IMG/VR virus record: IMGVR_UViG_2823577039_000003
Length of the DNA stretch: 20,000 bases
Source: an uncultured virus (IMG/VR IMGVR_UViG_2823577039_000003)
Taxonomy: Duplodnaviria > Heunggongvirae > Uroviricota > Caudoviricetes
Direction: 5' to 3' (one strand)
Shown here: piece after piece, positions 5,422 through 19,126 of the stretch
How the letters are laid out: every line of letters begins with the position of its first letter
Position numbering within the stretch: the first letter of the stretch is position 1
Notes under the pieces: generated by a model
The model's database searches: none
What the model saw: only the letters and a program-made list of their open reading frames with translations
What the model was told of the DNA's origin: nothing
Made by a program: the position numbers and the translations under genes

Positions 5422-5817
5422 TCACTCCTCTTCTTCTAACTCAGGTTCAGGAAGTCCTAAAGAGATTCTAACCATGTCTGCTTTTTCAGCATCGTAGGCT
5501 AATTTAGCATCAGCCAGTTCCATACCTTCGGCTACTTTATCCTTGATGTAGGATTTTCGGTTGGACTCAAACTCCATGAGGGCGAGAATAGCAGCATTTT
5601 CATCATCTACTTGACGACCATCATCATCGGATTCAAACAAATCTTCTACTTCTTGTTCAGCAGTCAAATAATCAGTGGCATCAACGTTGACATATTCGTC
5701 AAGTTCATCGTCCATAACTTTACCAGTTACGCCTTCTTGCATTTTTTCTACCATTTCCAAAGCCTGTGGCTTAGTTACTCTAAATCCGACTCTTTCCCAG
5801 TATCGTGTCTCGGTCAT
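5422..5817 (-). CDS. Acidic hypothetical protein (131 aa)
   Basis: ORF with TATAAATAG 22 nt upstream. Confidence 0.85.
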   Translation of the reverse strand: MTETRYWERVGFRVTKPQALEMVEKMQEGVTGKVMDDELDEYVNVDATDYLTAEQEVEDLFESDDDGRQVDDENAAILALMEFESNRKSYIKDKVAEGMELADAKLAYDAEKADMVRISLGLPEPELEEEE

Positions 5818-5839: not shown

Positions 5840-5848
5840 CTATTTATA
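5840..5848 (-). promoter_or_regulatory. TATA box TATAAATAG
   Basis: ctatttata on +; 22 nt from ATG at 5817. Confidence 0.8.
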
Positions 5849-6433: not shown

Positions 6434-6552
6434 TCTACCAACTCCTTAAGTTCTTGTTTCATGCCACTAATAATAAACGGAAAGTGGTAATCGTTGAGAA
6501 TCTTTTTAATACCTTCACGCATTCGCTGGACTTCATCACATTCGCAACTCAT
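6430..6552 (-). CDS. Small hypothetical protein (40 aa)
   Basis: Hand translation MSCECDEVQRMREGIKKILNDYHFPFIISGMKQELKELVE*; GAGGTGA SD; ATGA overlaps at both ends. Confidence 0.8.
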   Translation of the reverse strand: MSCECDEVQRMREGIKKILNDYHFPFIISGMKQELKELVE

Positions 6553-6920
6553 TCAATCACCTCGTATAACTGCCATTCTCCAGAAGCGAGACCATCTTTA
6601 TGAGAGAATAATCTACCGACTGGAAATCCATGGGCTTGACGCTCGTTATCGGCTCTCAATCTGCCTCCACATTCTAATTCAAAAGGTGGGTCGTGAAAAC
6701 GAGATCGCCATGCAAAAGAATCAACGGAATCAACGGCTATGGGACGAAGATGATAGGAATCATCTAATTCGCCCACAAGGACGTGAAGCCCTTGGCCGCT
6801 GGATGATACCCGATACCAGACCCTTTCGGGTCCAAAAGACTCGGCCAACTGGCTCAAAGCCTGCTGGACGATATCATTATCTATGGCGACATCATCCCAA
6901 TCAAAAGTTAACACTCCCAT
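6549..6920 (-). CDS. Minimal archaeo-eukaryotic primase (AEP)/prim-pol-like protein (123 aa)
   Basis: LTFDWD (motif I hhhDhD) and VSSSGQGLHV (motif II SxxGxH); motif III unclear. Start revised to ATG at 6920 from promoter spacing. Confidence 0.55.
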   Translation of the reverse strand: MGVLTFDWDDVAIDNDIVQQALSQLAESFGPERVWYRVSSSGQGLHVLVGELDDSYHLRPIAVDSVDSFAWRSRFHDPPFELECGGRLRADNERQAHGFPVGRLFSHKDGLASGEWQLYEVIE

Positions 6921-6941
6921 AGGAGTAATTAGTAACAACCT

Positions 6942-6951
6942 CTGTTATATA
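6942..6951 (-). promoter_or_regulatory. Variant TATA box TATATAACAG
   Basis: ctgttatata on +; 21 nt from ATG at 6920. Confidence 0.6.
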
Positions 6952-6959
6952 GTTTGAGA

Positions 6960-7649
6960 TTACTTCTTAAGCATCTTGGAAGCAAAAATACCGCCAACAA
7001 CTACGAGAGCAGCAATACCACCGTAAAGTAGGTAATTGGTTTCGTCTTCTTCAGTGTCATCGCCGTTTCCGCCATTATCAGAACCACCGTTGCCACCATT
7101 AGAACCGCCGTTGTCGCCGTTTGTGCCGTTATCACCAGTTCCGTTGTCGCCACCCGCAGGTGTGATAGGAACTACTTCATCAAGAGTGATATTGTAGGAG
7201 TCTCCACGAATCCATGGAACTTCAGTAGTTACGTTTGCAGAACCATCTGCAGGGACATAAACTACGTTTTTTCCACGGCCATCACGGTAGAGTGAGTCGC
7301 CGGGCTTAAGGTCAAAGGAAAAGGTTTGTTTGCCGGGGCGTGATAGGTTAACAGTTTGACTAACTATATCAGCAGCACTGTCAAGTGTAAAGTGGAATCC
7401 TTTATCGTATCCTGTTTTAACTCCACCACTTACGTTAGTAGTGTGAGAGCCAGCACCAGTGCCACCATCACCGATACTAAAACGACTAAAGTTGGCACCG
7501 TCATAGTTAGTAATGTTAGCACTATCAATGGTTGCTGCACCGAATTGTTTTGATGGTAGCGACATCAAACTTTCTGCGCTGAATGTTGGTAGTGGGAGAT
7601 TAGTCTCGGATTGAAACTTTCCAAATGAGTTATAGTCTACAAAGCCCAT
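6960..7649 (-). CDS. Tail-anchored membrane protein (229 aa): beta-rich domain, G/N/D linker, single C-terminal TM helix
   Basis: No N-terminal hydrophobic signal; linker GGDNGTGDNGTNGDNGGSNGGNGGSDNGGNG; C-terminus YLLYGGIAALVVVGGIFASKMLKK. Confidence 0.85.
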   Translation of the reverse strand: MGFVDYNSFGKFQSETNLPLPTFSAESLMSLPSKQFGAATIDSANITNYDGANFSRFSIGDGGTGAGSHTTNVSGGVKTGYDKGFHFTLDSAADIVSQTVNLSRPGKQTFSFDLKPGDSLYRDGRGKNVVYVPADGSANVTTEVPWIRGDSYNITLDEVVPITPAGGDNGTGDNGTNGDNGGSNGGNGGSDNGGNGDDTEEDETNYLLYGGIAALVVVGGIFASKMLKK

Positions 7650-7670
7650 GTAAAGAATAATACTCCACTA

Positions 7671-7679
7671 CTATTTATA
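7671..7679 (-). promoter_or_regulatory. TATA box TATAAATAG
   Basis: ctatttata on +; 21 nt from ATG at 7649. Confidence 0.85.
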
Positions 7680-7687
7680 TTTAACGA

Positions 7688-7846
7688 CTATTCTTCTTCG
7701 TCATCATTAGTATTTTTATGATACCAGACCAGAAGTTTACTTAACTGTTCATTTCGCCAGAGAACCCAGCGCACAAAATAAATATTCGCAAAGCCATGCA
7801 AGATCACAGCCATCATAATTAGCCATACAATTGTTAAGTCATCCAT
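7688..7846 (-). CDS. Small single-pass membrane protein (52 aa)
   Basis: Hand translation MDDLTIVWLIMMAVILHGFANIYFVRWVLWRNEQLSKLLVWYHKNTNDDEEE*; ATG 1 nt after the ATPase stop, with a GGGTGAG SD. Confidence 0.8.
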   Translation of the reverse strand: MDDLTIVWLIMMAVILHGFANIYFVRWVLWRNEQLSKLLVWYHKNTNDDEEE

Positions 7847-7847
7847 T

Positions 7848-8828
7848 TTACTCACCCGGTAATGTCATTTTATCAGTTCCCATAATCAAATCAGCGAAAT
7901 CTTTTAAGTGTCCTGAATCGCCTAAACCTTTGGGTTCATAGGGTAAACGAGTTACTCCAATAGCCGAGACATCATGTTCTTTGCAGACTTTTTGATAATT
8001 GTTAATCCATGGTTGCTGGTTCTGGTGTTCTGACCAGACCATAGCCACGGCAGGATTTTCTCCTCGGATATCAAAGTGTTGTTTGAGATCGGGAACGATG
8101 TGATTAATAATAAGTGTATTAGCAGGAAGCCCAATAGATTTCAAGAAATTGATAGTGCGATAAAACTCCATGAATCCTGCTTCAGTCGGAATGGAAACTA
8201 ACATAATTTTAGTTCTCTCGGTGTCTTCTAAAAATGATTTTAATAAATCTATTTCGTCACAGAAACTGGCCAGTAATTCTTCTAACTCATCAGTATCACT
8301 GCCTTTGAACACAATACCTTTCAGTAATTTGCCAGAAATCTTTTTCTTCATACGGCGAATCTTAAGCAACATTTCTTTAATGGTATCTGGTGCAGTCAAG
8401 GCTTTGAGGGTGTGTCCCGTAGGTGCAGTATCAAATACAATTAAATCATATTCTTCATCACGCATAAGTTCTCCGAGAATCTCACAAGCACCCCATTCGT
8501 CTAAACCGGGGAGTGCTGACATAGAGACTACATCAGTATCCATATTAGGAAAAAGATTACTAAACATAGAAGCGAAAGCCTCTTTAACTCGGGTTACTCG
8601 GCCTGAAATGGCTTTGGCAGCATCAATATTCATCGCCCAAAGATTAGTGGCAATTTCTTGAGGTGTAGAACTGATTTTAACTCCTACAGTATCGTCAGTG
8701 CTGTGAGCCGGATCGGAAGAGATAAGAATAGTTTTCAACCCTTGCTCAGCATAATAATGTGCTAAAGAAGCAGAAGTTGTGGATTTTCCCACTCCGCCTT
8801 TGCCAGTTACTAACAGTAACTTCGTCAT
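7848..8828 (-). CDS. arsA: ArsA/GET3(TRC40)-family ATPase, single-domain (326 aa)
   Basis: Deviant Walker A GKGGVGKSTT, switch I SDPAHS, LPGLDE, switch II DTAPTGHT, EPKG A-loop. Start revised to MTKLLLV (ATG at 8828), 21 nt after TATAAATAC. Confidence 0.95.
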   Translation of the reverse strand: MTKLLLVTGKGGVGKSTTSASLAHYYAEQGLKTILISSDPAHSTDDTVGVKISSTPQEIATNLWAMNIDAAKAISGRVTRVKEAFASMFSNLFPNMDTDVVSMSALPGLDEWGACEILGELMRDEEYDLIVFDTAPTGHTLKALTAPDTIKEMLLKIRRMKKKISGKLLKGIVFKGSDTDELEELLASFCDEIDLLKSFLEDTERTKIMLVSIPTEAGFMEFYRTINFLKSIGLPANTLIINHIVPDLKQHFDIRGENPAVAMVWSEHQNQQPWINNYQKVCKEHDVSAIGVTRLPYEPKGLGDSGHLKDFADLIMGTDKMTLPGE

Positions 8829-8849
8829 GGAGAAGTATAGATTCCACTG

Positions 8850-8858
8850 GTATTTATA
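8850..8858 (-). promoter_or_regulatory. TATA box TATAAATAC
   Basis: gtatttata on +; 21 nt from ATG at 8828. Confidence 0.8.
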
Positions 8859-8863
8859 TCTTC

Positions 8864-9289
8864 TTAAGCCCACTCTTCTAAGAAATCACTGGAAAACTCT
8901 TCAGATAAGTCATCTAAATCAATTTTTATAACTTCTTGCTTTTCGGTAACAATACTAAATTGACAATACAACAACTCGGTTTCATTTGCGGAAGTAATAC
9001 CACTCATAATTGATTCCCAGAGCGATAAGCACTCTAACGAGATAGTGAGGTCTTCTTTAGGAAAGAATGGGGCTTCTGGGGTGATAACCATACCTGATGA
9101 CACCAGTTCTCCAGAATAAACGGTAACTTTGCCACAAGTAATCTTGAGCATAACATAATCTGCACTATTAAAATTATCTAATGGGTGTATAATTATTTTT
9201 TCTACTCTGGTTCCGGGATCCATCTCTACAGTAGCGATGACGGAACTTGTGCGGCTTATCGGGATTTTAAAGTCTTTGCTTTTATCCAT
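8864..9289 (-). CDS. Hypothetical beta-rich protein (141 aa)
   Basis: ATG at 9289 preceded by a GGAGGG SD; alternating hydrophobic strands; acidic tail. Confidence 0.82.
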   Translation of the reverse strand: MDKSKDFKIPISRTSSVIATVEMDPGTRVEKIIIHPLDNFNSADYVMLKITCGKVTVYSGELVSSGMVITPEAPFFPKEDLTISLECLSLWESIMSGITSANETELLYCQFSIVTEKQEVIKIDLDDLSEEFSSDFLEEWA

Positions 9290-9320
9290 TTTACCCTCCA
9301 CTTTAGTATTGTGTTTTCCG

Positions 9321-9349: not shown

Positions 9350-12300
9350 CTAATTTTCCGAATCCCGGCGTTTCTCTTCCGTTTTCTGTATATCTCCGGA
9401 CGCAGAATTGCCGAAAGCGTCCACATCCATCATTTCATCAGTATCTGGATTAGGTGGAAGTAGATTTAACTGTGGGAGGAGTTCTTCAATAGATTCTTCA
9501 TCCAAGGCATAGAAATCACCTGCTAATTGTTCTTCTAAAGTTTCAGTAGCACTGGGTTTGAGAGTTCCGGCTTCTTCTCGTCGCTTACGCATTTTCCAAC
9601 CACGGTTTCTTTCTTTGAGAATATCTTGGTATTCTTGACGTTGTTTAGACATCCATTCTTCTATTTCTTCTAAAGTCATCTCGGCAGAATCTTGTTTCAA
9701 GATTTTACGTTTATACCACTCTACGTTTTCAGGGGTGACTCGGAGACCAAGATTTTGACATTCTACAGCAATAATAGAATCAATTTCATCATAAAGAACA
9801 TAATTCAACCAAACTTGAACCTTTCTACCAGTAGTTCCTGTGATTTGGTAGGCAGTGTTGCCGCTATAACAAAAAGGAACGCCTGCTCCTTGATAAGTTA
9901 GGAAAGGCATATACTGTGCATCTGCCCAAAAACCCCCACCGTTCCAAGGTGGTGCTCCTTCAGGATAGTTTAGATTAATAGGCACAGGATAATTAGGATC
10001 ATCACACCAGTAGTTAGCCCACACATAACTCAAAGAGGTATCTTGAACTCCGGTGCCTGAAGGATAAGTTTGAGTCGTATTATAATCAGCAATACCAATC
10101 CAAATAATACCATCTAAATTAGGGCTACCTTGTCTGGCAGCCCATAAACTGGAACCAAAAACAGTAGTGGCAGCACTATTAAAATTATTTACGGCAATAT
10201 TGTAAAAATCAGGAACATTACCAAAGTTTTGAGTTTGGTCTAAGAACTCACTGAAATCAGGAGTTACTGAAATCGCAGCGAATCCATTTCCTTCTTCGGA
10301 AACTGCTTTATCATTATCGGCTAACGTCATCATCCATTGAGCACGGTCTAAATCAAAATCAGCACATACTGGTCTGCGAGTAGTGGTTGCTCCACCGGGA
10401 CACAATTTATTAAATGTATTGCCGTAATTGATAATATTGAAATCAATAGAGGCGTAGTTAGGTTCGTCGTTAACGGCAGCACAAGCCCATGAACCACCAC
10501 CAAGATTATTAAATCCAATCGGTCCTTCAGAGGGCATCACTAAATATTGATATGCTAAAGTGGAATCATTAACGTGTGGATAATATTTGGAGCCTTCGCC
10601 TTCAATAGCAACCGCATTGTTAACTTTAATATTCAACGCTTCCAGACGGAGATTCTGTGTGACGTGGGTGGTTTGATTGATATCACGGACATAAATGGCC
10701 GTTCCATCGCTGGTTTGATAAAAAGCAATATCTTTCAATCCTTGCGGATCTCGCACACCAGCAACTGGGAATGGGCTGAATGGCAAATCCCATGGATTTC
10801 CTGCACTTCGGTAAGAATCCAACGAAGCATTTAATTCGTCAACCAAACTGCCTAAAGTAGTATATTGACCAGTTCCCATAGGTTGGGTGGCTCCGGGTGG
10901 GGCAACAGCATTAAGTCCTAACTCATTTTGATTGAGTATAATATCAAACTGGAAACCTGCTCCTGTGCCTGCCACATCACTGAAAAGATTACCTGTGGGA
11001 CCATCACCACACTTGGTAGTGTTAGTAGTGGGAATAGCCAGATATTGTTGAGGAATGGGATTATCAGTTTGTGGTGTAAGTGGTGAGACTCTTTTATCCC
11101 AAGAATCATAGATATCGGGGCTGGTAACAGTAGAGCCAGTATTTTGATTAAGACCATTATATGGAACTGCTAAACGGTAGACACCTCCCCACACGGGTGC
11201 ATTAGGAATAGTTGTCCATTCGTTGATAACTGGGTTAACATCCAACAGAATATTGCCGGGGTCTTGAGCATGAACTGTAGGTCCTGTAAGATTTCCAGCA
11301 CCGCCGTCAAAGGGTTTCCACCCGAGTCCTGTAGTGGTCCGATTCCAATGACCTAACATAATTTGTGCCAAACCAGTAGGTTCTCCGTAAGTATAGGTAA
11401 TGGGTTCTACATAAGTATGAAAACAAGACTTTTGGGCTGCCACTTGCTCGGTAGTTAAAGGAACTCCTTGAGTCTGAGTATAAATCCATTCCGAAGGCAT
11501 GAGAGCGATGTCTAAATACCCATCAGTATTAAAATCAGGTGCGTTGGCATTAGGTAAACAAGCAGTAGGGCTAAAGGCTGCGGTCGTTCTATCGGCTATA
11601 ATGGCTTCAGCCCAACCATACCAAGTAATGTAAGGAACAATAGTTTTAGTATCCATAGCGATGCCATTAGCACTGTCAATGGCCGTCCACGGTTGTAAAA
11701 TATATATTTCAGCACGTTTTTCATTCGTGCCTCCTGCTAATTCATTTACTTGTAGTAAAAGTCCTACATTAAAAAGTTGATTATCTGGTGCAGGATAATC
11801 AGCCCTAACTGCAGCCAACGGTTTAACAAAAGTAGCATTATCTAACGAAGAATTGGTGGGTGCGACAGTCAAATTACAGGCATTTTCAGCATTTACATCC
11901 TCTAAAGATATGTTTTGGCGAGTAAAACACTTCATCCATGTAACATTGGCATAATTAGAAACATCTGGTTCGTCTTGCCAACCACCCGCAGGTGGATTAT
12001 CTTTATTAGGGATTCCTTTTTCGGTGGCTTCAGTCCAACTGGTATTATATCCTGCGTAAGATTGACCTAAACAAGTTACAACACACAACGGTGAATAAAC
12101 AGGTTTACCTCCTGAAACTTTACAGGAATAAGTTAAAGCAGGATCGGTGGTCGGGTCTTCTAAACAATTTCCAGTAATAACGAAATAAGAGATAAGTGAA
12201 GTAGGTGCTGTGTAAACACCTGTAAAATTAAAATTATTAAAATCTGGGAAAGCATTGGATTGTTCAAAAGTAGGATAATATAAACCTTCAGGACCTGTGA

Positions 12301-13936
12301 AAGAATTAGAACCAGCAAAGGTATTGTAAGATGGTGTAATACCCGTAAGTTGACGAGGAATAAAACCATGTCTCCAGATTTCGCCATCAGTAATGGCTGA
12401 AGCAGGGTTGTTTACGCCCATTAAGGGTGTATAATAGTTGGGTTTTGGTGCATATTCAGAAAGAGAGGTCCGAGGGTAAGCATCTCCTCCGAGGGGGTTA
12501 TTTTGATACCGAGACTTGCACGATAAGAAATTAGGGGTTGAAAAAGCCATTTCTGCTGGCTTACGAATAGGGAATTGGCCTATTAAGGGTGTAGGACAAA
12601 AAGGAAAAGTGCTGGGTTGCCGAGGGGCCTCATTTTCATATTCAAAACTCGATCCAGTATTAGTTTGAGGGTAAAAAGGATTTCCACTAAACTTAGTATT
12701 TGTCATTCCGATTTGATGAGCACGATAAGTAACTTGTTCAAAAGGATAGATTTGAAGCGAACCAAAACGAGAAGCACCACTACACCAAGGAACTCTAAGA
12801 TTCGTGCCGGGGTTAAGAAATTGGGCTTGCCAATCGCCTTGGGCTATGCCTGCTGCATTCCCAGAAAAGGCACCTTGAGTGGCCATACTACTGCCACACT
12901 GATCGGGTTGTCCGTATCCAAACTGAATAAGAGGATTTTGTCCTTCTATATTACTATTTCCAATACACCAATTAAAGCCCCAATGTTCATAGGGAAACTC
13001 TATTTCGGCACCGCCAATATTAGAGTTCAAACTGGTAATTTGAGAATTAATCATCTGGGGGTTGATAGTTTTATAGATATCTGCACTATCGTTGCCAGAA
13101 TACTGGTCATTAAATATATTTACTACGAAGGAATACATAATAGGGATAAAATCTTGTTCGGCATAGATAGACCACTTATAACCAGCAGTAACATTAGTGC
13201 TGTTGTGAACCGTGGTTCCATAACCCCCGCAAGGCATATAGCCAACGCATTGAATAACTAACGGCTGAGCACCATTACCCGACAATTCAGGTTCCATGGC
13301 TTCCCAACCCTCTCTGGCAAAAGTGTTGAAACTTCTTTGGTCTATACACATATCCATTAAACCTCCTCCTTGGTTGGTTTGTTGAGGAATGGGTTCACCG
13401 GCAACAACATAAGGGTCATTAGTAGCCGGACCGTTAGACTCAGGTAATTCTAATTGAGAACGAGTCGGGAGGATGTGCCATGCAGCCGGATTATCTATTT
13501 CATCATATTTACAAGCAGCGAAGAAACCATCTAAAAATCCATTAAACTGAACATCGGGTGTCGTCCAACCGGCAGCCAAATCAGTGGGGTCCCAAGAGAT
13601 GAACTCAATCCGATCCCAGTTATTTAACGTCCACTGGTCATAATTAAGTTTACAACGATAATTTCCGCAAAGAAAAACCGTGCCGTTAGCACACATAATT
13701 TTATTTATAACCCATGAGCCGGGAACGGGTTGGATTCCTGCCCAACGTCCTGCAGACACTAAATCTATGGTTCCTTCTCCTGAGAATAAAGCACTCGCAG
13801 TAGGGTCGTTAGGACTGGCTTCTCCATAACCAATAGCACAACCATTAGTAGCATCTAAAAAAGAGTGATAAGCCCAAGCCTGATCTAAAATCTGGGGTGG
13901 TAGTTCTTCAACAGTAAGATCGAATGATAGTCCCAA
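9350..13936 (-). CDS. Very large hypothetical protein (~1528 aa), P/G/N/T/aromatic-rich beta body with a charged helical C-terminus; candidate virion/surface protein
   Basis: Uninterrupted ORF 9350..14071. The likelier start is TTG at 13936 (MGLSFDLTVEELPP), just after the upstream stop at 13941. No family recognised. Confidence 0.9.
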   Translation of the reverse strand: MGLSFDLTVEELPPQILDQAWAYHSFLDATNGCAIGYGEASPNDPTASALFSGEGTIDLVSAGRWAGIQPVPGSWVINKIMCANGTVFLCGNYRCKLNYDQWTLNNWDRIEFISWDPTDLAAGWTTPDVQFNGFLDGFFAACKYDEIDNPAAWHILPTRSQLELPESNGPATNDPYVVAGEPIPQQTNQGGGLMDMCIDQRSFNTFAREGWEAMEPELSGNGAQPLVIQCVGYMPCGGYGTTVHNSTNVTAGYKWSIYAEQDFIPIMYSFVVNIFNDQYSGNDSADIYKTINPQMINSQITSLNSNIGGAEIEFPYEHWGFNWCIGNSNIEGQNPLIQFGYGQPDQCGSSMATQGAFSGNAAGIAQGDWQAQFLNPGTNLRVPWCSGASRFGSLQIYPFEQVTYRAHQIGMTNTKFSGNPFYPQTNTGSSFEYENEAPRQPSTFPFCPTPLIGQFPIRKPAEMAFSTPNFLSCKSRYQNNPLGGDAYPRTSLSEYAPKPNYYTPLMGVNNPASAITDGEIWRHGFIPRQLTGITPSYNTFAGSNSFTGPEGLYYPTFEQSNAFPDFNNFNFTGVYTAPTSLISYFVITGNCLEDPTTDPALTYSCKVSGGKPVYSPLCVVTCLGQSYAGYNTSWTEATEKGIPNKDNPPAGGWQDEPDVSNYANVTWMKCFTRQNISLEDVNAENACNLTVAPTNSSLDNATFVKPLAAVRADYPAPDNQLFNVGLLLQVNELAGGTNEKRAEIYILQPWTAIDSANGIAMDTKTIVPYITWYGWAEAIIADRTTAAFSPTACLPNANAPDFNTDGYLDIALMPSEWIYTQTQGVPLTTEQVAAQKSCFHTYVEPITYTYGEPTGLAQIMLGHWNRTTTGLGWKPFDGGAGNLTGPTVHAQDPGNILLDVNPVINEWTTIPNAPVWGGVYRLAVPYNGLNQNTGSTVTSPDIYDSWDKRVSPLTPQTDNPIPQQYLAIPTTNTTKCGDGPTGNLFSDVAGTGAGFQFDIILNQNELGLNAVAPPGATQPMGTGQYTTLGSLVDELNASLDSYRSAGNPWDLPFSPFPVAGVRDPQGLKDIAFYQTSDGTAIYVRDINQTTHVTQNLRLEALNIKVNNAVAIEGEGSKYYPHVNDSTLAYQYLVMPSEGPIGFNNLGGGSWACAAVNDEPNYASIDFNIINYGNTFNKLCPGGATTTRRPVCADFDLDRAQWMMTLADNDKAVSEEGNGFAAISVTPDFSEFLDQTQNFGNVPDFYNIAVNNFNSAATTVFGSSLWAARQGSPNLDGIIWIGIADYNTTQTYPSGTGVQDTSLSYVWANYWCDDPNYPVPINLNYPEGAPPWNGGGFWADAQYMPFLTYQGAGVPFCYSGNTAYQITGTTGRKVQVWLNYVLYDEIDSIIAVECQNLGLRVTPENVEWYKRKILKQDSAEMTLEEIEEWMSKQRQEYQDILKERNRGWKMRKRREEAGTLKPSATETLEEQLAGDFYALDEESIEELLPQLNLLPPNPDTDEMMDVDAFGNSASGDIQKTEEKRRDSEN

Positions 13937-13940
13937 AATA

Positions 13941-14522
13941 TCACGGTCCTGTATTAGTATAATCTTTCGTGGTAGTATACGTCGTGGGTTGTGGTGTATA
14001 ACCAGTTGAGAAATCAGTAAAAGGGTTGTATTCATTACAAGTTGAATCGCCGGGAGTAAATTGAGTTTCAATTTCTACCACACGGTTGTAGGCTACATAA
14101 CGCACGTCATACCAAGTTCCCGGTGGAATCTCAATNGGAATAAATGATTTATAGGCAGGTTGGTAATTTAAAGAAACTGGAAAAGGTGCACCGATACCAG
14201 AAATACCATCGTAATCACGACCATCTAAGGTTTGGAAATAACCTGTATCATCCAACAGAATGTTGACGAAACCACGAGGACCCCAATTAGCACCTTTCAG
14301 TTCATTGGCTTGAAATCCGCCGGGGGTTGAACCCACATATTCTAACACAATAAATTGGTCGGCAGGAGTATAGAGTGATTTAGTTAAGACTCCGAAACCG
14401 TCATTGATGTTAAGTCCCACTAAAACAGATTGCTGACGAGAAGAAAGAGCATCAATTCTNATAATTGGNAGATTACCAAGATCTTGGAAATCAAACAGAT
14501 AACCCTGACGGCGAATGGCCAT
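13941..14522 (-). CDS. Hypothetical beta-rich protein (193 aa), possible structural protein
   Basis: Open frame; all three Ns fall at third codon positions; degenerate promoter (TTGATATAG, 14544-14552) at 21 nt. Confidence 0.85.
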   Translation of the reverse strand: MAIRRQGYLFDFQDLGNXPIXRIDALSSRQQSVLVGLNINDGFGVLTKSLYTPADQFIVLEYVGSTPGGFQANELKGANWGPRGFVNILLDDTGYFQTLDGRDYDGISGIGAPFPVSLNYQPAYKSFIXIEIPPGTWYDVRYVAYNRVVEIETQFTPGDSTCNEYNPFTDFSTGYTPQPTTYTTTKDYTNTGP

Positions 14523-15225: not shown

Positions 15226-16820
15226 TCAGTTTTCAAAGATATCTAAGATACCATCACCGTCGTCATCATCATCAACGTAGTTTTCTACACCATCGTTATC
15301 AGAATCAAATTGACCTGTAGCATCGTTACCATCATTGTTTTCAAACCAATCGGATAGACCATCGTTGTCATCATCGGTATCGGTAGCGTCCCAGATACCG
15401 TCGTTGTCGTGGTCGTAGCGGTAAGAAGCCCAAGAGCCTCCTACTTCATCCACGTCAAGGATGTTATCGTTGTCATCATCAGTGTCTACGGCATCGTTGA
15501 GTCCGTCATTGTCGTGGTCTCGGCTGGCATCAGACCCGTTTTCATACAGGTCGTTGCGGTTGTCAATTCCATCGTTATCAATGTCNTAGTCAAAACGATC
15601 TTCTATGCCGTCATTATCATGGTCATAAATATCTGTGTTATCATTTCCGTCTGTAACTTCTTCTGAATCGTTGATACCATCGCCATCGTCATCGTCATCT
15701 TCATTATCGTCAATACCATCATTGTCGTGATCGGTAGGTGTNGGGTCTTGGCTATCTGGGATACCATCGTTGTCATCATCATTATCTAAATCATCAGGGA
15801 TTCCATCACCATCGTTGTCATTATCACCCTGTAATTCTTGATTATCCAATTGCTGNCCTTGTTGCTGGTCATTTTGCTGACCTTGCTGGCCTTGTTGTCC
15901 ATTTTGAGTTTGACCTTGCTGTTGCTGGTTTTGCCCGTTTTGGTTTTGGCCACCTTGGTTGCCTTGTTGTTGTTGACCTTGCTGGCCACCTTGTTCACCA
16001 CCCTGTTGTTGTTGGCCTTGACCATTGTCTTGTTGTTGACCTTGCTGGCCTTGTTGTCCTTGTTGTCCAGATTGACCTTGGCCAGATTGTTGNCCTTGCT
16101 GTCCAGCCTGTCCTTGTTGACCTTGGTTTCCTTGTTGGCCTTGTTGACCTTGCTGGCCTTGGCCNTGTCCTTGACCTTGATTTTGTCCTTGTCCTTGTTG
16201 CTGGCCTTGGCCTTGACCTTGGCCTTGGCCTTGNCCTTGGCCTTGNCCTTGTCCTTGNCCTTGNCCTTNACCTTCTNGCNNTGGCCTTGTCCTTGGCCTT
16301 CGCCTTGGTCTTCTGACTCACCGCCACCTTCAGTTCCACCATTTCCGCTTCCGGCTTGGGACTCTTGATAATCTGGGTCGTAAGCATCAGGGATGCCATC
16401 GCCATCAGAATCAGAGTATTCTCCATCGTTAGGATCATTAGGGTATGGGTCGCTGCCATCAGGCTTGCCATCTCCGTCTGTATCAGCAGAGTTGGGATTT
16501 GTGCCTCGGGCATATTCTTGAGAGTTGGTTAAACCATCACCATCGGGGTCAGCATTAGCATCTCCACCGTTAGTAGGGTTTAGTCCATTACGGACTTCCC
16601 AACCATCAGGTAAACCATCACCATCAGAATCTGGGTTGTTCATATTGGTTCCAGCGTCTTGTTCTTCTTTGTTAGTAAGACCATCGCCGTCCCAGTCTGC
16701 CCCACCATCAGAGGGGTCAAGTGGATCGGAACCTTCACCAGTTACGACACCTGCGCTCATAGCGAGCATCAGGGCAGTTAAAATTGTAAGCATCATTGTT
16801 TTGAATCTATTTTCTTTCAT
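15226..16820 (-). CDS. Secreted calcium-binding repeat protein (TSP type-3-like DxDxDG repeats) with a central Gln/Gly spacer, ~530 aa; apparent frameshift at the N-rich junction 16269-16281
   Basis: Signal-like N-terminus (TMMLTILTALMLAMSAGVVTG); DWDGDGLTNKEE/DSDGDGLPDGWE repeats. After the junction the CAA-GGN frame reads QGQGQQ... continuously into the HDNDG-repeat ORF 15226..15849. Confidence 0.85.
15850..16310 (-). repeat. Degenerate CAA-GGN (Gln-Gly) coding tandem repeat
   Basis: ccttgN / ccttgttg units repeated on +; produces the spurious Leu-rich and Lys-rich shadow ORFs. Confidence 0.9.
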
Positions 16821-16921: not shown

Positions 16922-17317
16922 TCAATCGTTTTCACGCTCTTCGGCGTGGTGTTCGGCATGACAATTACCACACAAGAGTTCTAAAGTATGTAATTTATTT
17001 TTTAAATCTTTCCAAGGATAATCGGTGATTCCTCGTTGGAACCTGATGCCACTACCTCCTTGAGAGCCACCTCTTACATCGCCCCAAGGTCGCTTGTAAG
17101 ATGGATCGGTGTGATGACAATGCAAATTAGCACCAGAATAATCGCATTTCTTACATTTACCCCCTAATTGTTCCAATAACCATGCTCTTTTTGCCAAACG
17201 AAGTGCTCGTTTGTTAGAAACATTGTTAGCAATAATATCGTCACGATTTCTCTCGTAGTATTTCTTTTGATACTTCTTTTGATATTGTTTGCGTTTTTCA
17301 GGGTCTTTAAATGGCAA
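16922..17317 (-). CDS. HNH endonuclease with Zn-binding CxxC pairs (131 aa)
   Basis: CKKC...LHCHHTDP...ELLCGNCHAEHH; basic N-terminal helix PFKDPEKRKQYQKKY; likely TTG start at 17317 after an AAGGTG SD. Confidence 0.88.
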   Translation of the reverse strand: MPFKDPEKRKQYQKKYQKKYYERNRDDIIANNVSNKRALRLAKRAWLLEQLGGKCKKCDYSGANLHCHHTDPSYKRPWGDVRGGSQGGSGIRFQRGITDYPWKDLKNKLHTLELLCGNCHAEHHAEEREND

Positions 17318-17328
17318 GTTAAGCACCT

Positions 17329-17995: not shown

Positions 17996-19126
17996 TCATT
18001 CATAGTCCCGAATAGCAATACCTACAGGAAACCGGGGTATGCCGTCATTAGTTAATTCTTGATATTTTACAGTCAACAGTTTACCAAAATACTTTTGTCG
18101 GTTGCGGTATTTTTCTCTACGGTCGGCCTGAGTGCCTTTAGGTCGGCACTTGAATCTTTGACCTTTGGAAGTTTCACAAATCCACACCACAGTTCCAATA
18201 TCGTTGCCTTGGCCTTCCAGAGCATCCACAATCTTATATTCGGAATCGTGGAAAACCTTGTGCTTCTGAAGATTATAGGAACGCTTACCTTGTTCATAGG
18301 GTGATTTGATATTGCGGATCATGACTCCTTCATCGCCAGCAGCGAGGAACTTAGATAACAAAGCGTTGATATCGCTGTCATTGTCTACACGATAACAAGG
18401 AACCATAGTAAGTGTGCCAGTAGTATCTTTATCTACATATTGTTTAGCCTTTTTCCATCGCTGAAGAAAAGTCATATCAGGATTAGCCATATCCATAGCA
18501 TCAAATACATTTAGTTTAACTTTAGCCATGTCATCAATGTCGGTTTGGTTCTTGTAGGTTTTCTTACGAACTAATCCTACTACTCGCTGGAAATCCATTT
18601 GGTCTGAATAGAGTTCGCCATCTAAAATAAAAGTTTCAGGAAGTCCGGTGGAAATAACGGCTTTACGAATCTGGTCTAAGAGTTGGAACTCTTTTCCTTT
18701 TCGGGAGAGTAGACTCACACTACCGTCTGATTCCATCTTAGCAGTGCAACGAACACCATCAAGTTTGGGTTGGGCGATAGCAGGGAAGATAATTTTATGT
18801 CCGTGTTTTTCGTAGGGTTGAGCCAACATAGGAACGGGTGCCAGATTAACATTGATACCGTCAGTATTGAAAGTATAGCCTTGGTCTCGGTGTTTATTAA
18901 CTTTGGAATCAAACTCTAAGACGGCTTGTTCCATGGGTGTGCGTCCGGCTTTTCCGTCAACAATAATAACTCCAGCATCTTCAATAATTTTTCCACCTTT
19001 TTGACCGTGTGAGGTCTTGATAGTATAGATACCTTGATCTTCTTCAAGCCAAATAGTCCATTGAACTACATTTTTACTGGCTGTGCGTCTGTAGAAAGTT
19101 TGAGGGATACGAACTATGTTTACCAT
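17996..19126 (-). CDS. lig: ATP-dependent DNA ligase, compact viral type with a WGR-like N-terminal extension (376 aa)
   Basis: PMLA, motif I QPKLDGVR, SRKGK, motif III ILDGELY, IIIa VFDA, IV EGVMIR, V LQKHK, VI IPRFPV; no archaeal DNA-binding domain. Confidence 0.95.
   Translation of the reverse strand: MVNIVRIPQTFYRRTASKNVVQWTIWLEEDQGIYTIKTSHGQKGGKIIEDAGVIIVDGKAGRTPMEQAVLEFDSKVNKHRDQGYTFNTDGINVNLAPVPMLAQPYEKHGHKIIFPAIAQPKLDGVRCTAKMESDGSVSLLSRKGKEFQLLDQIRKAVISTGLPETFILDGELYSDQMDFQRVVGLVRKKTYKNQTDIDDMAKVKLNVFDAMDMANPDMTFLQRWKKAKQYVDKDTTGTLTMVPCYRVDNDSDINALLSKFLAAGDEGVMIRNIKSPYEQGKRSYNLQKHKVFHDSEYKIVDALEGQGNDIGTVVWICETSKGQRFKCRPKGTQADRREKYRNRQKYFGKLLTVKYQELTNDGIPRFPVGIAIRDYE

Follow-up and report, generated by a model that had tools for sequence, protein, structure and literature searches.

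A Get3/TRC40-type ATPase and a small membrane protein in a marine archaeal virus-like element: a candidate chaperone system for tail-anchored proteins

The stretch of DNA analysed here, called the window, comprises 20,000 nt of an uncultured virus (IMG/VR record IMGVR_UViG_2823577039_000003) and corresponds to C16:116325-136324, the last 20 kb of a 136,324-bp contig, C16, with 41.5% GC. Our subject is a region on its minus strand where a gene for a single-domain Get3/TRC40-type ATPase (7848..8828) is followed by one for a 52-aa single-pass membrane protein (7688..7846) and then by one for a 229-aa tail-anchor-type protein (6960..7649), which a first-pass annotation had proposed to be a membrane-targeting module. 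The ATPase open reading frame (ORF) spans 7848-8873, and its likely start is the first ATG, at 8828 (MTKLLLVTGKGGVGKS...), giving a protein of 326 aa whose length and start are identical to those of its closest relatives. This ATG lies exactly 30 nt downstream of TATAAATA at 8858-8851, the predicted TATA box (8851..8858, minus strand) of an operon of the ATPase and small-protein genes and the promoter that had been claimed for the ATPase. The ATPase stop TAA occupies 7850-7848 and the ATG of the small gene is at 7846, leaving a 1-nt gap. The 229-aa gene has a TATAAATA box of its own (7672..7679, minus strand), 30 nt upstream of its ATG at 7649.

The ATPase was assigned from Pfam, NCBIfam, a sequence search of the PDB, an AlphaFold2 (AF2) model, Foldseek and a tree. 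It matches the Pfam family ArsA_ATPase (PF02374) with 191.2 bits (E 3e-56, cut-off 24.3) and the NCBIfam model TIGR00345, GET3_arsA_TRC40, with 189.2 bits, above the cut-off of 135. The family motifs checked were a deviant Walker A (GKGGVGKT/S), DPAH in the switch I region and DTAPTGHT in switch II; they are found as the P-loop GKGGVGKS at residues 9-16, DPAH at 39-42 and DTAPTGHT at 133-140, and show little or no variation across 27 viral-clade sequences. The AF2 model, built on the alignment of those 27 sequences, has a mean pLDDT of 84.5 and predicts long helices at residues 136-168 and 177-201, the loop at 170-173 being modelled at low confidence, in agreement with the long helical segment that the first-pass annotation had placed after DTAPTGHT. 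This matches the pattern of extended helices 7 and 9, with an insert behind switch II, that marks the tail-anchor-targeting Get3/TRC40 type. In the PDB sequence search the top matches were Chlamydomonas ArsA1, M. jannaschii Get3 (142 bits) and M. thermautotrophicus TRC40 (138 bits). Foldseek placed 3zq6 and 3ug6/3ug7 at the top, followed by eukaryotic Get3 in free, tail-anchored (TA)-protein-bound and receptor-bound forms; among the matches listed (ranks to 50, with repeat chains of one entry left out) all are Get3 proteins of archaea or eukaryotes, and E. coli ArsA is not among them.

Like archaeal Get3/TRC40 (3zq6; 3ug6/3ug7), with which it shares ~30% identity, the window ATPase is a single-domain SIMIBI ATPase of similar length. 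These structures are its best fold match (Foldseek E 1e-22 to 1e-20, TM ~0.7), and the alignment continues through the switch II helices and the insert, residues 149-198 aligning with the insert region of the M. jannaschii and M. thermautotrophicus proteins. The window ATPase differs in being borne by a virus-like element, in its slightly shorter insert, in having no CxxC motif and in being paired with a small membrane protein, which was not seen beside the 80 cellular homologues searched. Its helix 4-9 region, which in a closed Get3 dimer would form the hydrophobic, Met-rich groove, displays a conserved hydrophobic periodicity and contains seven Met residues (clade median 7, range 4-12 among the 27 viral-clade sequences); for fungal Get3, sections of PMC6593721 give at least four in this helix region.

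Relatives of the ATPase are annotated as 'arsenite-transporting ATPase' at source and the Pfam family is itself named ArsA_ATPase, as would suit an ArsA-type subunit of an arsenite/antimonite pump for metalloid resistance. E. coli ArsA (1f48) belongs to the same Pfam family, and its nucleotide-binding core aligns with residues 5-148 and 199-253 of the window protein, skipping residues 149-198. However, ArsA carries two domains in tandem, has metalloid-binding cysteines and lacks a TRC40-type insert, whereas the window ATPase has one domain, of 326 aa, with the insert present and those cysteines absent. The cysteines in question we take to be C113, C172 and C422. No Cys lies opposite the first two (position 115 is C, L, M or A across the clade), the Cys of ...GACTTEIAAFDEF faces none in the 1f48 alignment, and there is none in residues 149-189. 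The ArsA equivalog model TIGR04291 scores 106.9 bits against a cut-off of 650, and the absence of arsB, acr3, arsC, arsD and arsR noted in the first pass extends along the contig, with no ars family among 27 window ORFs (Pfam, 23 also NCBIfam), in a PHROG scan of the window, or among 117 other C16 ORFs of at least 90 aa (Pfam). Judged by its sequence and predicted fold, the protein is closest to archaeal Get3/TRC40, with algal ArsA1 beside it, rather than to the arsenite pump ArsA; the grouping with pump proteins named beforehand as a check did not appear, and we regard a pump function as scarcely credible.

A role as a ParA/MinD-like positioning ATPase, of the same SIMIBI class, was also weighed; here the small protein would tether the ATPase to the membrane for placement of the genome or of an assembly site. 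Partition systems are often carried by large elements, and the ATPase does have weak matches to the ParA-like phrog_164 (49 bits), to NF041546 (35 bits) and to CbiA models. These models remain far below their cut-offs (NF041546 35 against 180; TIGR01968 25 against 213) while the Get3 model passes its own, the full Get3 helical subdomain is present, and Pfam, NCBIfam and PHROG scans revealed no ParB-like neighbour. We consider such a role quite improbable.

A protein search recovered a close clade of ATPases with 52-93% identity and lengths of 326-334 aa on marine contigs of up to 169 kb, followed by relatives of 316 aa and of 384-396 aa with 43-49% identity. The latter two forms bear the labels Marinimicrobia and Bacteroidota, and their assignment as cellular proteins was rejected as their loci show the element's gene order. 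A metagenome scan for the ATPase yielded 80 loci. At nine of these, with an ATPase 34-47% identical to that of the window, homologues of the element's 129-, 131-, 169- and 268-aa proteins are found in the same order; since these neighbours are homologous and collinear, we treat the nine loci as related elements.

The 52-aa protein has a single hydrophobic segment, near its N-terminus, as the first-pass annotation had described. Its homologues fall into 10 clusters with 65-100% identity, and an exhaustive profile search gave 31 representatives at E <= 0.001, of which 29 are 44-137 aa long and two are long proteins that match solely via short repeated stretches. Because of these clusters and representatives, the ORF is, on comparative grounds, a real gene. 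The family core, (Y/F)FVxW(V/I)LWR(W)N, is predicted to lie at the membrane-cytosol boundary; after it come a short helix and a tail of mostly acidic character. W27, R31 and N32 together with the surrounding (Y/F)FVxWVLWRN are fixed across the family while the transmembrane (TM) residues vary. Pfam, NCBIfam and PHROG contain no family for it, and the best ESM Atlas score, 0.84, is below the useful range. Acidic tails (..EEE, ..EEWA) end several small conserved proteins of the block (window 5422-5817, 7688-7846 and 8864-9301, and counterparts in L009-L016).

Among all ORFs of the 80 metagenome loci the small-protein profile has six matches, every one directly behind the ATPase (L009, L010, L011, L012, L014 and L016), so that the adjacency is kept in six of the nine related elements. 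Two other loci, L015 and L017, show no homologue but end too early to judge. The small protein is absent from the 69 weaker metagenome loci (L020-L088) and the 80 genome loci (0 of these 149 other loci), and its profile finds nothing in two Poseidoniales genomes. It is possible that the two genes are merely syntenic and that the 52-aa product is an unrelated viral membrane protein, holin- or viroporin-like or an exclusion factor, located in a core block. The block of 129-, 131-, 169- and 268-aa genes is collinear as a whole in relatives, so gene-order conservation extends beyond the pair; three syntenic loci have no small gene, the 268-aa neighbour has weak holin/spanin PHROG matches (E ~0.002), and the small protein itself has no known family. 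On the other hand, in the window and in five of the six related loci that have the small gene, its start either overlaps the ATPase stop or lies 1-2 nt beyond it (in L012 the first in-frame ATG follows the stop by 44 nt), and nowhere among the loci searched does the small protein occur without this ATPase. We judge mere synteny to be unlikely.

The ATPase tree contains 65 rows, 27 from the viral clade and 38 cellular; the latter come from 43 of the 80 genome loci, hand-picked for taxonomic spread, with five proteins longer than 440 aa omitted. All 27 viral ATPases fall into a single clade (SH-aLRT 99), which joins two Poseidoniales Get3-HSP20 proteins and one metagenome-assembled genome contig labelled Deltaproteobacteria in a three-way fork without resolution (support 92). 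The fork is nested in a wider, likewise poorly branched group that includes the archaeal Get3 rows together with seven bacterial ones, mostly from Bacillota, and a second group holds the other bacterial and four archaeal homologues. The viral ATPases are of archaeal, Poseidoniales-like, Get3 descent. In sequence terms this fits capture by the element of a Get3 from a Poseidoniales-like archaeal host lineage and makes Poseidoniales a possible host. The conserved 169-aa core protein of the element was found in none of 201 Poseidoniales genomes, and neither a provirus nor a co-binned copy was seen; the link to Poseidoniales accordingly comes from the ATPase tree.

The Poseidoniales (Marine Group II) Get3-HSP20 proteins, from contigs L101 and L108, are among the nearest cellular neighbours in the tree, with 34-36% identity to the window ATPase, but are 417-422 aa long. 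Pfam detects an ArsA_HSP20 domain in L101 (24 bits, cut-off 22.5) and none in L108; the window ATPase has no such domain. In both contigs (L101:3001-5641, L108:3001-5663) the Get3-like gene is followed at once by SRP54, an arrangement of the Poseidoniales loci that sets two protein-targeting factors side by side. Some viral relatives, unlike the window ATPase, retain a C-terminal extension: the 384-396-aa forms (L013:4154-5308, L014:1973-3142, L016:815-1978; proteins P0019-P0029, P0043 and P0085) end in ~70 beta-rich residues, closing with ...GATYTFK, that have no Pfam match and are perhaps what is left of the HSP20-like domain present in cellular relatives.

Contig C16 lies in a 1.63-Mb bin whose other contigs mostly have ~27% GC. 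Within the bin, TFIIB domains occur on C16 only, and a search of 42 genomes of the bin's order recovered the conserved 169-aa core protein from G000 only, with none in the other 41, so C16 was probably co-binned. It encodes a full-length TFB (NF001658, 319 bits) and a PolD large subunit (TIGR00354, 962 bits, above the equivalog cut-off of 702), along with a PolX-LigD phosphoesterase fusion, a Rad3/DinG-like helicase, an ATP-dependent ligase, a HerA-like ATPase, glycosyltransferases, a Cu/Zn superoxide dismutase and collagen/fibre-like proteins; in all, PHROG families match very little of it. The motif TATAAATA occurs at 60 sites on C16, and at 40 of these an ATG follows at +27..+33 (at exactly +30 in 27 cases), against backgrounds of 12.8% for random positions and 42/394 on the low-GC contigs. 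The motif often sits inside ...AAGTATAAATAGTTG..., with window examples at 8851-8858, 7672-7679, 5841-5848 and 1872-1879. This regularity suggests archaeal TATA-driven leaderless transcription by the element's own TFB.

A second contig, C26, shows the same promoter pattern (10/16) and holds the last 300 nt of C16 at position ~3,578. From this overlap and the common pattern, the element is likely split over two contigs and probably measures ~170 kb, which is the size of the longest contigs with related ATPases. With its TFB, PolD and leaderless TATA promoters, C16 looks like an archaeal virus-like element, as had been proposed from the window; no capsid gene was identified on it, so that its being a virus is something we infer. 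Metagenome runs from marine, seawater or sponge samples, dated 2014-2025, include 17 with DNA near-identical to window positions 6900-8900 (83-90% of sampled words), and the 20 runs in all that hold the DNA come from 14 studies. The element is widespread.

The 229-aa protein was characterised by hydropathy, a fold model and its homologue family. Its N-terminus has no hydrophobic stretch and no in-frame extension upstream, and its sole hydrophobic helix, at residues 206-224/227, is followed by ...ASKMLKK; the first-pass description of a protein with one C-terminal helix and an SKMLKK end was accurate. The layout consists of a conserved N-terminal 45 aa, a predicted beta-sandwich at ~55-160, a Gly/Asn/Asp-rich linker, NYLLYGG, the TM helix (206-227) and KMLKK. 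The family comprises 30 clusters, all from these marine elements, in which the first 45 residues and the C-terminal anchor are nearly invariant and the middle is variable. A fold search with the model returned no match at E <= 0.001 and a generic beta-sandwich only. Contigs from three RNA libraries of two studies cover positions 7089-7541 of the gene with 95-100% identity, and these may include DNA carry-over; over the ATPase gene such contigs match only in a 32-nt conserved piece with unlike flanks and are uninformative on its expression. The protein (window 6960-7040) also shares a C-terminal module with a 303-aa TSP1-domain protein (C16:3664-3750), made up of an acidic linker, (F/Y)LLYG, a TM helix and KK, which resembles a sorting-signal architecture without an N-terminal signal peptide.

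We counted ORFs of this topology with a rule that calls a protein TA-type if it has one 19-residue Kyte-Doolittle segment of at least 1.6 that ends no more than 30 residues from the C-terminus and starts after residue 40. On C16, 18 of 165 ORFs are TA-type, compared with 15/1238 on the low-GC contigs of the bin (odds ratio 10, p 1.7e-9) and 6/391 in 400 kb of two Poseidoniales genomes (p 3.6e-6). The enrichment is ~7-10 times and survives all 12 parameter settings. A further 13 ORFs on C16 have a single N-terminal hydrophobic segment. One HerA/FtsK-like P-loop ATPase (DUF87, weak HerA matches; C16:105166-106380, equal to L008:3166-4380 on the minus strand) ends in a predicted TM helix; it is itself TA-type and a candidate membrane-bound packaging or translocating ATPase.

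We propose, at odds slightly better than even, that the element carries a Get3-type chaperone for its own tail-anchored proteins, co-expressed with a dedicated small membrane partner. In that case the region would be an operon in which a large marine archaeal virus-like element joins two genes, for a Get3/TRC40-type ATPase and for a virus-specific 52-aa single-pass membrane protein. The ATPase would form an ATP-dependent homodimer whose helical subdomains shield the C-terminal TM helices of the element's many tail-anchored proteins post-translationally and carry them to the membrane. The neighbouring 229-aa protein and the HerA-like ATPase would be likely clients. The small protein, made in step with the ATPase, would most likely be its membrane-side partner, acting as a docking site or adaptor where viral membrane proteins insert. 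From the evidence above we infer the binding of transmembrane domains (TMDs), their delivery, and a receptor, adaptor or client role for the 52-aa protein.

Get3/TRC40 is well understood in eukaryotes, where it works with a Get1/Get2 or WRB/CAML receptor; its role and membrane partner are less settled for archaea and bacteria, and we know of no Get3 receptor in archaea. The eukaryotic GET/TRC ATPase is homologous to that of the window and has the same fold, and the eukaryotic pathway resembles our proposal in combining a cytosolic TMD chaperone with a membrane-embedded docking partner. In contrast, no homologue of Get1, Get2, Get4 or Sgt2 was seen at the element, where a single-pass protein of only 52 aa, without a known family, is the candidate partner. 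A narrower and rather doubtful version of the proposal is a minimal, self-contained GET-like pathway in which the 52-aa protein is a receptor that docks the loaded Get3-type chaperone through its invariant WxxLWRN motif and short acidic tail; such a pathway would guide the numerous tail-anchored proteins of the element to whichever membranes serve for particle assembly.

Several observations weigh against a dedicated targeting system and must be set beside the proposal. The CxxC zinc motif is absent from all 27 viral-clade ATPases, the window protein included; sections of PMC6593721 report that the motif is not universal, that land-plant and some archaeal Get3 proteins without it still dimerise, and that archaeal Get3 lacking it is able to dimerise and bind TA proteins. 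The same sections state that the TRC40 insert alone does not predict TA targeting and that prokaryotic homologues with it may be general chaperones (PMC6593721). The census applies a crude hydropathy rule to self-called ORFs. Its excess on C16 lends new support to the first-pass proposal, but the short related loci have only 7/196 against 11/651; on C16 itself, TA-type genes are not preferentially linked to TATAAATA (6/18 against 30/147, p 0.23). Conservation of the neighbourhood, a check that the first-pass annotation had named, held for the ATPase/small-protein pair in six of the nine related elements and failed for the 229-aa gene, whose homologue is at none of the 80 metagenome loci, the nine syntenic ones included; by sequence comparison its adjacency to the module is specific to the window's own lineage. 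The 229-aa protein contains several sequons (NxS/T), which would fit an exposed glycoprotein, so its topology needs explaining if the N-terminal domain is cytosolic. Three of the nine syntenic loci (L013, L018, L019) have no recognisable small-protein homologue, and viral gene order that is kept need not reflect physical partnership.

Some of these observations fit a broader chaperone, in which the ATPase, regulated by ATP, would act as a general holdase for viral proteins that are hydrophobic or prone to aggregate, with no dedicated targeting function and with the small protein as just one client. That prokaryotic homologues with the TRC40 insert may act in this way is in keeping with it, as are the C-terminal extensions of the nearest cellular relatives in Poseidoniales (ArsA_HSP20 in L101) and of some viral long forms, and the 13 C16 ORFs with a single N-terminal hydrophobic segment. 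Yet that extension has been lost in the window's lineage, the excess on C16 is specific to tail-anchor topologies, and the strict translational coupling and invariant juxtamembrane motif look more like those of a fixed partner than of one client. We hold a general holdase to be improbable, though worth keeping in view. If instead the minimal GET-like pathway is real, this would be the first virus-encoded tail-anchor targeting system and would provide the first candidate membrane partner of an archaeal Get3. A Get3 homologue belongs to the core genes of an entire lineage of abundant marine elements, suggesting that large archaeal viruses may themselves supply the machinery that inserts proteins into virion membranes, and the compact two-protein system is directly assayable for TMD capture and docking.

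Searches for precedents gave little. Scanning a viral contig collection with the ATPase and alignment A1 found no relative, a search of genome contigs for PTEAGFMEF, a motif of the clade, gave 0 matches, and tblastn against phage records found only five distant matches of <= 31% identity. A record-level literature search found no description of a virus-encoded Get3 or of this element group, and a term search of the Poseidoniales virus paper PMC11706807 found no mention of ArsA, Get3, DP2 or TFIIB. What is new at this locus is the viral setting and the conserved partner; the chaperone family itself is known. The element family itself (~170 kb, with TFB, PolD and a regular leaderless promoter) merits description.

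Other genes flank the module in the window. Directly upstream of the ATPase, a gene for a 145-aa protein (8864..9301, minus strand) is the positional counterpart of 127-165-aa ORFs in related elements; it shares with them 15-23% identity and a common F..EW(A) C-terminal end, and homology was not established, phmmer giving no match at E <= 1e-3. On the other side, the 129-aa 'LTFDWDD' protein (6549..6938, minus strand) is a member of the conserved downstream block, with phmmer matches in the nine related loci at E 4e-30 to 7e-12. A 1573-aa ORF at 9350-14071 has no family match and may encode a large structural protein; L009 and L010 carry homologues of it at the corresponding position (E 1e-24 to 3e-30). 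Positions 15226-16820 hold two overlapping minus-strand ORFs (207 and 344 aa) with bacterial thrombospondin type 3 repeats, the 344-aa one with an N-terminal hydrophobic segment; this region has the highest GC of the window (0.45-0.48), a strong AT skew (-0.20 to -0.33) and scattered N positions. Further upstream and in the same orientation are an HNH endonuclease gene at 16922-17326 (PHROG 3106, E 2e-11) and an ATP-dependent DNA ligase gene at 17996-19126 (PHROG 114, 246 bits).

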